Origin: Rickettsiales bacterium
GTDB lineage: Bacteria > Pseudomonadota > Alphaproteobacteria > Rickettsiales > UBA1997
Direction: 5' to 3'
DNA length: 63,210 nucleotides
Assembly (NCBI GenBank): GCA_044360285.1
Contig: JBIKKP010000002.1
Coordinates: 1-63,210 of the forward strand
The stretch's first letter is position 1. Each line of letters starts with the position of its first letter. A model generated the notes under the pieces. The model saw only the letters and a program-made list of their open reading frames with translations. It was not told the DNA's origin and did not search any database. Made by a program: the position numbers and the translations under genes. Below are positions 57,685-61,371 of this stretch, piece after piece.

Positions 57685-58192
57685 CGAAATTATTTTAACA
57701 TTTTTCTTTCTTGGTAAAGCAAAAAAAGCGCCCGGAACCTTTGGCAGTATTGGCGCTCTAGCTTTTTGGTTTTTTCTTTCGCAGCTTTTTTTCAATCAGC
57801 AATTCTCAATAAAAAGTCAGACAATTTTTTGGGGATTTTTTTTGTTGACGATTCTGCTTTACGGAATTTTTGCCATTCCATTTTACGCAAAAAAAGTTGG
57901 CGAAATTGACCACAAATCAATCGTACTTGACGAAGTTTTCGGGCAGATTCTTGCTCTGCAAATGACTTTCGTTTTTATCAGCGAAAATTATTTCCAAAAC
58001 CCGCGTCTAATTCTGGCGCACCTACTTTTTTGCTTCGTTCTTTTTAGATTTTTCGACATAAGAAAACCGCTGCTAATTGGCTATCTTGACCGCAATTTAA
58101 AAAACAGTTTTGGCGTCATGTTAGATGACGTATTATGCGGCTTGGTTGTAGGGCTCATCGGAATTGCAACTATACATTTTTTTCATGCCTAA
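57671..58192 (+). CDS. pgpA: Phosphatidylglycerophosphatase A
   Basis: I moved the start to ATG 57671, a 14-nt overlap with dapE. 'APGTFGSIGAL' and 'FRFFDIRKP' are PgpA motifs. Confidence 0.85.
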   Translation: MKRINEIILTFFFLGKAKKAPGTFGSIGALAFWFFLSQLFFNQQFSIKSQTIFWGFFLLTILLYGIFAIPFYAKKVGEIDHKSIVLDEVFGQILALQMTFVFISENYFQNPRLILAHLLFCFVLFRFFDIRKPLLIGYLDRNLKNSFGVMLDDVLCGLVVGLIGIATIHFFHA

Positions 58193-59210
58193 AAACTTAA
58201 AAGCCTTCAGTTTAATTGAGCTTTCCATCGTGATTTTGATCGTCTCGATTTTGCTCACCGGCGCACTTTCAGCGACAATGTTTTCGGTGAATAAATCTAA
58301 GGTCAGGCTTAGCCAAGAACGCATGCAAACCATCTACAAAGCGATGGGAATTTTCTTGAGCAAAAACGGTTATCTTCCTTGTCCAGCAGCAATCACTTTG
58401 GCTAAATCAAACAGCTCATATGGCACCGCGGCGGGCAGTTGCTCTTCCGCTCCAGGCACTGCTTCTGGCTATTGGAAATCAACTGACTCTGACAGCCCAA
58501 ATCTTTTTTTTGGCATGGTTCCAACCAAGACACTTGGGCTTTCATCAGATTTTTCAGAAGATGGATTTGGTGGAAAAATTGGCTATTTTGTGCATAGCGG
58601 CTTCGCCTCGGCAACCACTTTTGGCAAGGGCCCAGCCTCAGTTAGCAGTTCAAAAAATTATGCCGATGACAGCAACTTGCTTCGCATCATCATTAAAGAA
58701 AAGCCGACCTCAGAATTACAAATCACCAACGATGCCGCTTTTGCACTTATAAGCTATGGAACCAATAAACTCGCTGGTTGGAACATAAATGCCAGCACAC
58801 AAAATGCCGCATCAACTGACGCAGAAGAAATAGAAAATAGCTTAGGAAGCCTTGATGCAACCACTGGCACAGCAACTTTCGACAACGTGCTTTTCATTTC
58901 TTCAGCAAATAGCGACTCTTTCGACGACATAGTTTTTTACAAAACGCGCGACGAAATGACTCTCGATTTCAACTTACTTGGCCTGGTTTCTTGCGACGAA
59001 GCAAGTCCAACACAAACCATAAATTATGGCGGCACAGATTACGGCTATACCTGGGCAGCAAGCAGCAGCACAAAATATGGAGCAAACGCTGCAGCCAGCC
59101 AAGTTTGTCCAACTGGATATACAGCTGGCGTGGCTCGACCAACAAAAAAGTGTGGCGCTTTTGGCAAGTGGGAAAGCGATGTAATTGAAAACTGCTTACA
59201 AAATCCGTAA
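58185..59210 (+). CDS. Large pilin-like protein 1 (prepilin-type N-terminal motif, Cys-rich C-terminal module)
   Basis: I moved the start to ATG 58185, an 8-nt overlap with pgpA. The leader is 'MPKNLKA|FSLIELSIVILIVSILL', with F+1 and E+5. It is paralogous to the next two genes. Confidence 0.65.
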   Translation: MPKNLKAFSLIELSIVILIVSILLTGALSATMFSVNKSKVRLSQERMQTIYKAMGIFLSKNGYLPCPAAITLAKSNSSYGTAAGSCSSAPGTASGYWKSTDSDSPNLFFGMVPTKTLGLSSDFSEDGFGGKIGYFVHSGFASATTFGKGPASVSSSKNYADDSNLLRIIIKEKPTSELQITNDAAFALISYGTNKLAGWNINASTQNAASTDAEEIENSLGSLDATTGTATFDNVLFISSANSDSFDDIVFYKTRDEMTLDFNLLGLVSCDEASPTQTINYGGTDYGYTWAASSSTKYGANAAASQVCPTGYTAGVARPTKKCGAFGKWESDVIENCLQNP

Positions 59211-60307
59211 TGAAAACAGCAGCAAGTCGTTCCAAATCTAGCTTCACACTCATCGAGCTTTCGGTGCTGATCTTGATAATCTCAGTTTTTTTAGCTGGAA
59301 CCTTCACGCTTCTAAACAGCAGAAACGCCGGTCGCAAAGTCACCGCCACCAACGAAAAAATTCAAATAATCTACAAATCGCTAGGAATTTTTTTGAGCAA
59401 AAACGGCCATTTACCATGCCCCGCCGCAATTAATCTTCCAATCACTGACGCCAATTACGGTATCGCCGCAGAAACTTGCGCCAATCCGCCAGCAAGCGGC
59501 TCGGGATATTGGAAAAGCTCGTTTCACGATTTCATTTATTACGGCATGATTCCAACCACAACTTTGGGTCTGCCCAGCGATTTTTCGGTTGATGGCTTTG
59601 GCAGCAAATTTTCTTACGCCATCATTAATGGGTTCACCAAGGCAGAATTTTTTCCACTTGACATCGCTTCAACTGATGATGGCAGCGGCAACCTCTATTC
59701 TACTTACACCAAAGATGTTGCACTTGGTTCGGGCTATCGATTTTTTCTTAATGATCGCAAAAAAGATTCGGCCGGAACTGTGGTAAATACTGCCTTAACC
59801 AGCGATGCAATGTTTGTTTTAATCAGCCACGGCGCCAATAAATCTGGCGCTTGGGGACAGAATTCTACTACACAAAACTCTCTTTCTTCCAGCAACGAAG
59901 AAATTTGGAATTCGGTCACTGGAAATATCGATTCTCCAGCTGATGGCAAAGCAGATTTCTACAACAGCAACTCTAACGTCAGCACGCCATTTCCTTTTGT
60001 TTTTTCCTCAACTGTTGACGGCGTTTTCGACGATATAATTTTCTACAAAACCAGAAACGAAATGATTAGCGACTTCAAGCTTTTTGGCTTGATACCTTGT
60101 GCAAGCAACGTCACGCAAAGCATAACCTACGGCGCGCCTTCAAACTTTAGTTGGACCGGTGATTTAAGCATAAAATATGGCGAGATCGTTCCCTCAGGCA
60201 ACGCCTGCCCCGGCGGCTTCGAAGGTGGACCAAAATATCCTGGCAAAAAATGCGGCGCTTTTGGCAATTGGGAAAGCACTGTGGCGCGGCCGTGCTTAGC
60301 AGGGTAA
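59210..60307 (+). CDS. Large pilin-like protein 2
   Basis: The start overlaps the previous stop (TAATG). The leader is 'MKTAASRSKSS|FTLIELSVLILIISVFL'. It shares the blocks 'LPCPAA', 'FDDIIFYKTR' and 'KKCGAFGNWES'. Confidence 0.65.
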   Translation: MKTAASRSKSSFTLIELSVLILIISVFLAGTFTLLNSRNAGRKVTATNEKIQIIYKSLGIFLSKNGHLPCPAAINLPITDANYGIAAETCANPPASGSGYWKSSFHDFIYYGMIPTTTLGLPSDFSVDGFGSKFSYAIINGFTKAEFFPLDIASTDDGSGNLYSTYTKDVALGSGYRFFLNDRKKDSAGTVVNTALTSDAMFVLISHGANKSGAWGQNSTTQNSLSSSNEEIWNSVTGNIDSPADGKADFYNSNSNVSTPFPFVFSSTVDGVFDDIIFYKTRNEMISDFKLFGLIPCASNVTQSITYGAPSNFSWTGDLSIKYGEIVPSGNACPGGFEGGPKYPGKKCGAFGNWESTVARPCLAG

Positions 60308-60318
60308 AAAATTAGAAA

Positions 60319-61371
60319 ATGAAAAAACCTCTCAAAGCTTTCACACTGCTAGAACTATCAATGGTCCTGGTTGTTGTTGCCATCATAATTTCCACTTCAT
60401 TTTCCGCCTTTAATAAAAGCAGCGCACAAAAGACAAAAATCAGCAAAGATAAAATTGAAGAGCTCTATAAAGCCTTCAGCGCCTATGTCAAAAGCTATGG
60501 ACGCCTGCCTTGCCCATCATCAATTCTGCTGACAAAAGGTAATGCCAATTATGGCAAAGAAGTCACCTGCAACTATAACCTGGGCTCGCCAACACTTTCC
60601 AGCCCGGTTGGAATTTGGCAATCAAGCAACAACAGTAATTTGATTTACGGCGGCGTTCCAATCAAAGAACTTGGGCTTTCGCCGGATATGGCTGAAGATG
60701 AATTCGGCAATAAAATTGCTTATTTCGTTTTGAAAGATCTGACCACCAAAAACACTTTCGATTCTTTAGTGAACGTTGGCAACGGCCAAGGCAACAGCTA
60801 CAACGCTGGCGATGCTGCTGACGATAATCGCATTCGCATTCACGAAAGAAATAACAGCAACGTAAAACGCGCAACCGCAAGTGCGGTTTTGGTGTTGATG
60901 AGCTATGGCGCCAACGGCTTTTGCGCCTATCCAAAAAATTCTGCGACCAGAAATGCTTCTGCAACTGACGCCGACGAAGCCTTTAACTGCGCGCCTTACT
61001 CAACTTCCGGCACTTCCAACTTTTACAATTACAACTATTCAAGCAGCCTCTTTCCATTCATGGCGCAATCAAATAGCGACGCTTTTGACGACATCGTTCT
61101 TTTCAAAAGCAGGCAGCAACTTGTTAACGATTCTAAATACTTTCCAACCCCCGCCTGCAGCGAAGATTTTTTTGAAATCATCACTTACGGCGCCACAACA
61201 AAAACTTATTACTGGCGCGGCGATTCAACTTTAGGTGAAGAAGACCTTGGCGTTTCAGCCACCGCCTGCCCTTCTGGTTATAATTCTGGTGCTTACGCCG
61301 GCCCAACAAAAAAATGCGGCGAACTACGTAGATGGCGCAGCGGCGTGGATAGCGGGTGCGTGGAGAATTAA
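60319..61371 (+). CDS. Large pilin-like protein 3
   Basis: The leader is 'MKKPLKA|FTLLELSMVLVVVAIII'. It shares the blocks 'LPCPSS', 'FDDIVLFKSR' and 'KKCGELRRWRS'. Confidence 0.65.
   Translation: MKKPLKAFTLLELSMVLVVVAIIISTSFSAFNKSSAQKTKISKDKIEELYKAFSAYVKSYGRLPCPSSILLTKGNANYGKEVTCNYNLGSPTLSSPVGIWQSSNNSNLIYGGVPIKELGLSPDMAEDEFGNKIAYFVLKDLTTKNTFDSLVNVGNGQGNSYNAGDAADDNRIRIHERNNSNVKRATASAVLVLMSYGANGFCAYPKNSATRNASATDADEAFNCAPYSTSGTSNFYNYNYSSSLFPFMAQSNSDAFDDIVLFKSRQQLVNDSKYFPTPACSEDFFEIITYGATTKTYYWRGDSTLGEEDLGVSATACPSGYNSGAYAGPTKKCGELRRWRSGVDSGCVEN

Follow-up and report, generated by a model that had tools for sequence, protein, structure and literature searches.

A tandem array of three pilin-like genes

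The stretch of DNA examined here, called the window throughout, comprises 63,210 nucleotides of contig JBIKKP010000002.1 (positions 1 to 63,210 of the forward strand, GenBank assembly GCA_044360285.1) from a Rickettsiales bacterium, a small freshwater alphaproteobacterium with a genome of 1.46 Mb in 72 contigs that is 98.9 % complete. Near its end it carries a tandem array of three pilin-like genes, W1, W2 and W3, whose products consist of two parts: an N-terminal pilin module and a small C-terminal module with four cysteines that resembles the sushi domain, also known as complement control protein (CCP) module or short consensus repeat (SCR), and the hormone-receptor domain (HRM/HormR). Identity to W1 is 46 % for W2 and 39 % for W3, the most divergent paralogue. 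We regard the three proteins as probable type IV pilins of bimodular build, with the end module displayed for binding. The positions of the genes and of their parts are collected in Table 1.

The genes are packed tightly. The final base of the W1 stop codon is also the A of the W2 start codon, so that the two genes share one base (window 59208-59212), and only 11 bases separate the W2 stop codon from the W3 start codon (window 60305-60318). Given this one-base overlap and short gap, W1-W3 are probably co-transcribed and translationally coupled.

Table 1. Genes of the array and the parts of their products, with positions counted from the first base of the window
Feature	Position	Strand	Length, details and evidence
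W1, pilin-like gene	58185..59210 (stop included; sense codons to 59207)	+	341 aa; open reading frame (ORF) list, Pfam N_methyl, TIGR02532, AlphaFold model
W1 leader peptide, 7 residues, short and basic	58185..58205	+	sequence; predicted cleavage after Ala7, before Phe8
W1 pilin module, residues ~8-258	58206..58958	+	secondary structure, VIA-align and Foldseek pilin matches
W1 sushi/HormR-like four-cysteine module, residues 262-341	58968..59207	+	conservation, stand-alone model, structural neighbours, profiles
W1 module codons	Cys1 58992-58994; Cys2 59106-59108; Cys3 59151-59153; Trp 59169-59171; Cys4 59193-59195		
W2, pilin-like gene	59210..60307 (stop included; sense codons to 60304)	+	365 aa; family profile E 9.1e-108
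W2 sushi/HormR-like module	60074..60304	+	local hidden Markov model (HMM) 82.2 bits; module profile against own genome E 3.0e-22
W3, pilin-like gene	60319..61371 (stop included; sense codons to 61368)	+	350 aa; family profile E 3.8e-94
W3 sushi/HormR-like module	61132..61368	+	local HMM 43.5 bits; module profile against own genome E 4.4e-12

A conserved four-cysteine module ends each protein

A sequence-only reading of the window had proposed that all three paralogues end in one and the same four-cysteine pattern, and this is indeed the case: W1, W2 and W3 all carry the motif C-x7-8-I-[NT]-Y-G ... C-P-x-G-[YF] ... P-x-K-K-C-G-x4-W-x-S-x-V-x3-C. The limits drawn for W1 by that reading coincide with the codon of Cys270, the first cysteine (58992), and with the last sense codon (59207), and the equivalent modules that it placed at about 60080-60304 and 61144-61368 are the W2 and W3 modules of Table 1.

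The four-cysteine module is conserved far above chance. A search of 5.8 billion clustered proteins returned 258 relatives at E≤1e-3, which, where their sources name them, are prepilin-type or type II secretion proteins from metagenome-assembled genomes (MAGs) of Rickettsiales, Pelagibacterales and Pseudomonadota. In a 108-row family alignment with a mean column identity of 29 %, to which the conservation counts given here refer, Cys270, Cys308 and Cys323 are each present in every row and Cys337 in 106 rows, and the tryptophan described as invariant between the third and fourth cysteines (Trp329) is found in 107. Gly327 (104/108), Tyr298 (99/108) and Pro319 (90/108) are also widely retained, and 107 of the 120 best relatives have exactly four cysteines within their final 80 residues. 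The proposed motif is thus family-wide in its cysteine and tryptophan core, whereas its I-[NT]-Y-G segment is confined to close relatives, since Tyr281 occurs in 31/108 rows and its column is gapped in 66.

The anatomy of the module was followed in 70 related loci from public MAGs, which were scanned with the local module HMM and yielded 91 distinct stretches; counts were made over 85 distinct modules. Eighty of these lie within ORFs that have a pilin N-terminus, and 68 finish five or fewer residues before the stop codon. At related loci, between one and four module-bearing genes stand next to each other. The distance between the first and second cysteines ranges from 16 to 52 residues (standard deviation 6.7), that between the second and third from 8 to 24 (2.5), and that between the third and fourth from 9 to 16 (0.9). 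The half that runs from the second to the fourth cysteine is strongly conserved, with the consensus PT[KR][KR]CGAFGxW.

The N-terminal part is a pilin module

In all three proteins a short leader, basic in character, and the prepilin motif form the N-terminus. The pilin module of W1 has a long, hydrophobic N-terminal helix (residues 10-61) followed by a globular head in which Cys66 and Cys86 form a conserved pair. W1 passes the Pfam N_methyl cut-off of 21.2 bits (24.2 bits), of which W2 (15.0 bits) and W3 (17.3 bits) fall short, and the TIGR02532 cut-off of 16.3 bits is passed by W1 (22.0 bits) and W3 (19.8 bits). Across the family, N_methyl matches at E≤1 were obtained for 106/108 relatives, and Glu12 of W1, which is position +5 of the mature protein when Phe8 is counted as +1, is invariant in all 108 rows; the family consensus around the cleavage site is K-K-A-F-S-L-I-E-L-S. 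Components of a pilus machinery are encoded on other contigs of the genome, namely a prepilin peptidase (Peptidase_A24, 45.6 bits), a secretin (Secretin, 131 bits) and two ATPases of the T2SSE family (423 and 104 bits).

Structural comparison agrees with this assignment and with the pilin fold, in which a helix packs on an antiparallel sheet. When the full-length AlphaFold2 model of W1 was compared with the PDB by Foldseek, the best match was 9iuf_A, the type IVb pilus subunit of enterotoxigenic Escherichia coli (ETEC), at E 0.089 and probability 0.98. In a wide VIA-align search over 48,161 chains, a tool that warns that Z under 8 may mean merely a common arrangement, residues 8-255 matched 9iuf_A (Z 5.3, root-mean-square deviation 3.5, 144 residues aligned), EpsG (4.5), PilA1 (4.2), PulG (3.8) and TcpA (3.5), and about 18 rows covering residues 8-258 are pilins or pseudopilins, all with modest scores.

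The presence of EpsG and PulG in this list raises the alternative that W1-W3 do not build an adhesive pilus and instead serve as pseudopilins or in some other type IV filament, for instance as part of a secretion piston or of a fibre for DNA uptake. Some relatives are named 'type II secretion system protein' or 'PulG' by their sources, and the NCBIfam GspG, GspH and ComG models give weak matches to the N-termini. These scores, however, are far below the cut-offs (15-19 against 49-89 bits) and reflect the shared helix only, and structurally W1 comes closest to a subunit of a type IVb pilus. In addition, subunits of 340 residues with adhesion-type modules, encoded beside lectin-bearing pilins in the same genome, fit an adhesive fibre better, and we consider the pseudopilin alternative improbable.

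As a side observation, the local module HMM makes brief partial matches (model positions ~5-45) in the head of many relatives, at residues ~66-110. The site is the conserved L-P-C-P ... Y-G ... C pair (window ~58380-58515 in W1), and it may be an internal echo of the module or an effect of composition.

Structural neighbours of the C-terminal module

The AlphaFold2 model of full-length W1, built from the 108-row alignment, has a mean predicted local distance difference test score (pLDDT) of 92.1 and a predicted template modelling score (pTM) of 0.87, and contains five strands within residues 276-335. Modelled alone, the module (80 aa) reaches pLDDT 88.9 and shows the same five strands. In the VIA-align search, residues 265-341 matched a class B G-protein-coupled receptor (GPCR) ectodomain (Z 3.9), the cysteine-rich domain (CRD) of EphA2 (3.8, 28 % identity), Gpr126 HormR (3.8), PTH2R (3.7) and VIPR2 (3.6), and the CCP modules of factor H, DAF, CR2 and C1s followed at Z 3.0-2.6. 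With the module alone, the best Z was 3.7, a value reached by Gpr126 HormR (root-mean-square deviation 2.6, 53 residues aligned), and the VIPR2 ectodomain and latrophilin-3 HormR were also at the top. Judged by title, about 45 of the top 50 neighbours of the module are sushi domains of the CCP, HormR, class B GPCR ectodomain or Eph-CRD kind, the exceptions being two entries for fibronectin type I, one with an odd title and a phage tail spike. CCP modules appear in the module lists only at Z≤3.4 and Foldseek E≥0.5. Apart from 9iuf_A at the head of the full-length list, the Foldseek lists for both models consist of CCP proteins and of class B GPCR and Eph ectodomains, with E-values of 0.1-3. A search of the ESM Atlas with residues 262-341, restricted to named clusters, gave no usable match.

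The structural neighbours of W1 thus fall into two groups, pilins for residues 8-255 and sushi/HormR domains for residues 265-341, both with weak scores, a division that supports the two-module build. For the module, the one-sidedness of the neighbour lists is a strong lead from a predicted model, with scores too low to prove the fold.

Homology to Sushi and HRM repeats

The relationship of the module becomes clearer at the level of sequence profiles. A profile made from an alignment of 71 modules, from the window and related loci, was searched against 1.84 billion representative proteins and matched 329 of them at E≤1e-3, of which 126 reach E≤1e-10. Heading the list are long repeat proteins rather than pilins: P0121 is matched by 29 stretches (E 8.3e-71), and P0122 and P0123 follow at ~6e-41. 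Among the 150 matches listed, 66 have at least three matched stretches, and all 66 pass the Pfam cut-offs for Sushi and/or HRM, often together with that for Ephrin_CRD, while none of these 66 multi-repeat matches has only EGF, TSP or other cysteine-rich repeats; the remaining 84 of the 150 listed are single or double matches of the pilin-family type. Among the retrieved repeat proteins are some with 5-31 Pfam Sushi repeats, and P0121 scores 202 bits with Pfam HRM. The best single repeat (30.8 bits) aligns with all four cysteines and the tryptophan, G-Y, P-T-[KR]-x-C and G-x-W in register. Moreover, an hhalign comparison of the 71-module alignment with the 29 repeats of P0121, which were cut by cysteine spacing alone, gave a probability of 96.2 % (E 2.3e-9, 43 columns). 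By these profile comparisons the module is homologous to Sushi/HRM repeats. Some of the matched repeat proteins carry Tyr-kinase and fn3, EGF or ZP domains and others Big_5 or MopE motifs; there are hints that the owners may be both eukaryotic and bacterial, which is not evidence of origin.

Within this superfamily the module stands, in sequence, nearer to the HRM/HormR branch than to canonical CCP. Of the Pfam families, HRM (PF02793) fits the module best, with matches at E≤1 in 29/108 relatives (weak matches, best 2.6e-4), compared with 3/108 for Sushi (best 0.055). The 71-module profile found nothing significant among PDB sequences (best E 0.36), and each of the 12 rows at E≤10 is a CCP of complement C2 or factor B, the ectodomain of PTH1R or the sushi domain of GABA-B R1; a profile of the three proteins found only pilin N-termini there, plus Amoebiasin-1 at E 0.69. 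Aligned with the module, PTH1R has the same signature, W-P ... G ... V ... C-P ... [KR]-x-C ... G-x-W. Only four cysteines are conserved and the position preceding W-P is not a cysteine, so the six-cysteine HRM pattern is absent. The proposed resemblance to a CCP/sushi domain is therefore supported in sequence, with a signature (W-P ... G ... C-P) that points to the HRM/HormR side.

The resemblance proposed by the sequence-only reading rests on the family-level profiles, the neighbour lists and a relative with canonical Sushi repeats (L080, described below), and it did not extend to direct significance. The results that weigh against the assignment of the module are as follows. Pfam Sushi (PF00084) found nothing at E≤10 in W1-W3 or in the isolated modules, a Pfam scan of the isolated W1-W3 modules returned no family at E≤10, and the best Sushi match in the whole genome (E 0.155) lies outside the three genes. 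HRM reaches only 13.2 bits on W1 (E 0.12, cut-off 26.2) and matches neither W2 nor W3. The predicted model is confident and its neighbours are of the sushi type; nevertheless, Foldseek returned nothing from the PDB at E≤1e-3 for the full-length protein or the module alone (best E for the module 0.52), and no VIA-align match to the module reached Z≥5 in either search. The large profile scores are sums over many repeats, with no single repeat significant library-wide, and P0121 was chosen as the best match of the profile, so that its hhalign E-value is not independent of the profile search. Finally, hhalign of the 71-module alignment against the eight repeats of L080 gave a probability of 17.5 % (E 0.0014, 35 columns).

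Taken together, the weak fold scores, the Pfam Sushi and HRM scores below cut-off on the window proteins and the dependence of profile significance on summed repeats are what would be expected if the likeness were a convergence of two-disulfide beta domains with a buried tryptophan, the matches arising from cysteine-rich composition. Such convergence is very improbable in our view. All 66 multi-repeat matches are Sushi/HRM proteins, and the positions in register include many that are not cysteines (W-P, G before Cys2, G-[YW] after Cys2, P-T-[KR] before Cys3, and G-x-W); the P0121 repeats align with high probability, and L080 joins the module directly to canonical Sushi repeats.

Relatives with additional domains and giant open reading frames

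L080 (4642-7509, + strand), a 956-aa open frame from a related locus in another MAG, contains a pilin N-terminus, the family head, the module, a partial copy of the module and eight canonical four-cysteine repeats that match Pfam Sushi at E 1e-22 (80.7 bits), so that this pilin bears a CCP-like 'string of beads'. The hhalign comparison with these repeats aligns Cys2, Cys3, the tryptophan and Cys4, and its low probability suggests that the module is nearer to HRM-type repeats than to the CCP-type repeats of L080. In three other relatives of 615-644 aa (L018:5956-7887, L018:8030-9925 and L020:704-2548), a Gly_rich_2 domain (PF21722, up to 66.7 bits) follows the module.

Module-like sequence is also seen in very long ORFs. 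In the genome of the window, a 2043-aa open frame (contig C2, L084) matches the module profile at E 1.6e-3 and Ephrin_CRD at 21 bits, below the cut-off. Two giant ORFs on the minus strand, L016:8400-12926 and L022:8182-12930 (1509 and 1583 aa), adjoin the pilin arrays of relatives and contain weak repeated module matches, and Pfam found no family in them at E≤0.1. These giant ORFs may encode large surface proteins with degenerate sushi-like repeats.

Genomic neighbourhood, other pilins and distribution

The array is flanked by housekeeping genes, with serS, dapE and pgpA upstream, nuoH and nuoI downstream, and secF and an mscS-like gene further upstream. Seven further pilin-like ORFs (L004-L010; contigs C12, C39, C26, C18, C1, C60 and C5) of 274 to ~1082 aa are scattered over the genome. 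Two of these seven pass the cut-off of Pfam Laminin_G_3, a ConA-like lectin family (31.3 and 31.0 bits), and four match below threshold. With these ORFs and W1-W3, the genome contains a set of modular pilins whose putative binding modules are of at least two kinds.

The module was found in 32 of 301 genomes drawn from the same order; it occurs in 20/23 other genomes of the family to which the window belongs and in 14/14 of its genus. Outside this family it is seen, within the sampled order, solely in very long ORFs of 539-3335 aa.

Type IV pili have been proposed as attachment devices of early-branching and extracellular Rickettsiales in two papers on the evolution of the order (PMC10847448 and PMC9352585). 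The genome also has two VirB4-type genes (C50:16212-16808 and C19:31947-32549, 184 and 104 bits), which fit the duplication of virB4 in Rickettsiales reported in PMC9352585. A search of the genome for the ATP/ADP translocase (PF03219) gave no match and is uninformative, because control genomes were equally silent.

A model for pilus-borne binding modules

If W1-W3 are bimodular pilins, the prepilin peptidase of the genome would process the short leader, and the PilB-type ATPase and secretin would assemble the pilins into a type IV filament through the N-terminal helix. The last ~75 residues would form a separate small beta domain of the sushi (CCP/SCR) superfold, closest to its HRM/HormR branch. 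Two disulfides, Cys1-Cys3 and Cys2-Cys4, probably hold the module together, a pairing predicted from the in-register alignment with four-cysteine repeats and from the disulfide chemistry of sushi domains. Borne on the filament, the module would most likely serve to bind a ligand, either a protein or a glycan; the length-variable stretch between Cys1 and Cys2 would probably set the specificity, and tandem paralogues could supply alternative specificities. The pilin features, the two-module build, the conservation and the homology to Sushi/HRM repeats come out of the analysis itself, and we infer cleavage, assembly, exposure on the filament, binding of a ligand and the nature of the target. The sequence-only reading also placed the module at the tip of a pilin-like scaffold and linked it to adhesion and a host-associated lifestyle, which are conjectures.

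Two aspects of the locus argue against this model. The genes flanking the array include none of a pilus machinery. Furthermore, glycine is the canonical residue at position -1 of the prepilin cleavage site and is found at that position in none of W1-W3, which have alanine (W1, 58203-58205; W3, 60340-60342) or serine (W2, 59240-59242), so that processing is not assured. Alanine also occupies -1 in all seven other pilin-like ORFs of the genome, and alanine or serine at -1 looks like a cleavage-site variant of the whole lineage.

A third objection comes from the predicted structure. The high pTM of the whole-protein model suggests that the module packs on the head, perhaps as an enlarged structural C-terminal region. 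On this account the module would be homologous to sushi/HormR domains and yet purely structural, a disulfide-braced end that stabilises the head and the contacts between subunits and binds no ligand. The fixed arrangement of head and module implied by the pTM, the high conservation of the half from Cys2 to Cys4, as expected of a packing surface, and the disulfide-bounded region in which classical type IV pilins end are all in its favour. However, in L080 the module recurs beyond the pilin as free-standing tandem repeats, and the giant non-pilin ORFs contain weak matches to it; this recurrence suggests that it can fold and work outside the pilin context. In addition, the distance from Cys1 to Cys2 varies strongly between paralogues, as it would in an exposed specificity loop, and the C-terminus must be accessible in those relatives in which Gly_rich_2 is appended to the module. 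A purely structural role, the chief alternative, is therefore rather unlikely, and display of a binding module by type IV pilins is the reading that we prefer.

The presence of sushi and hormone-receptor domains is generally seen as a mark of the surface proteins of eukaryotes, above all of animals, and modular pilins are a recently recognised bacterial route to new binding functions of pili; the present finding joins both themes. It names a candidate adhesin for uncultured alphaproteobacteria of small genome size and debated lifestyle, and it offers a compact bacterial sushi/HormR-like domain that is amenable to expression and structure solution. Sequences that bridge CCP and HRM may also help to trace the origin of these domains. 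The significance would be higher if the module coats the whole filament or bridges the evolution of CCP and HormR domains. In a bolder scenario, which we think unlikely as a whole though less so than the pseudopilin alternative, every filament subunit of this small-genome, freshwater, Rickettsiales-like family, and not just the tip, would display a HormR/sushi module, so that the pilus would be a polyvalent array latching onto a conserved ligand of a protist host or prey, with paralogues switching specificity; the four-cysteine modules with an HRM signature, together with the four-cysteine HRM-like repeats of metagenomic proteins, might further be a missing link from CCP to the six-cysteine HormR domain. 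If this link were true, the HormR branch would have originated outside animals.

Comparison with known systems

The module shares with Sushi/CCP/SCR domains (PF00084), known from complement regulators, selectins and cytokine receptors, four similarly spaced cysteines, a G-[YF] after the second cysteine and a tryptophan between the third and fourth, and modules of factor H, CR2, DAF, C1s and MASP populate its structural lists. It differs in that, L080 excepted, only one copy of it closes each pilin, whereas CCP modules form strings, and in that its Cys1-Cys2 region contains W-P ... Y-G-Q, which is typical of HRM and not of CCP. With HRM/HormR (PF02793), the hormone-binding domain of class B and adhesion GPCRs, it has in common the succession of W-P, G, V, C-P, [KR]-x-C and G-x-W. 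The HRM pattern has six cysteines, the extra pair tying an N-terminal helix to the 'C-W-P' position, whereas the present module has four conserved cysteines and, as its fusion partner, a bacterial pilin in place of a seven-helix receptor. The two families are themselves related, as a review (PMC2656815) describes the fold of the class B N-terminal domain as a short consensus repeat/Sushi domain and mentions three disulfides.

On the pilin side, W1-W3 resemble type IVb pilins in their large heads and in their structural matches, CofA (9iuf_A) being the best match of the pilin part and TcpA of Vibrio cholerae reaching Z 3.5. Type IVb pilins have long leaders, whereas those of W1-W3 are 7-11 residues long; the identity is merely 22 %, and type IVb pilins lack a sushi-like end.

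The closest parallel in architecture is provided by the modular pilins of Streptococcus sanguinis, PilB (pilin and vWA) and PilC (pilin and lectin), described by Raynaud et al. (2021, PMC8179133), which likewise combine an N-terminal pilin with a distinct C-terminal module from a family of binding domains. That paper counts pilins with the ConA-like lectin module among the frequent architectures, and such pilins occur in the genome studied here. In contrast to those modules, that of W1-W3 is only ~75 aa long, belongs to every product of a tandem array of two to four paralogues and could be packed against the head rather than hanging from a linker. 'Sushi' does not occur in the main text of that survey, nor do the Sushi and HRM accessions in its three supplementary files, and no description of a sushi- or HRM-bearing pilin was found in the literature searched or in its architecture tables; searches for literature on eukaryotic-like sushi domains in prokaryotes yielded nothing useful. 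Thus, modular type IV pilins as a kind are already known, and a sushi/HormR-like module at the end of a pilin, as predicted for W1-W3, appears to be new.

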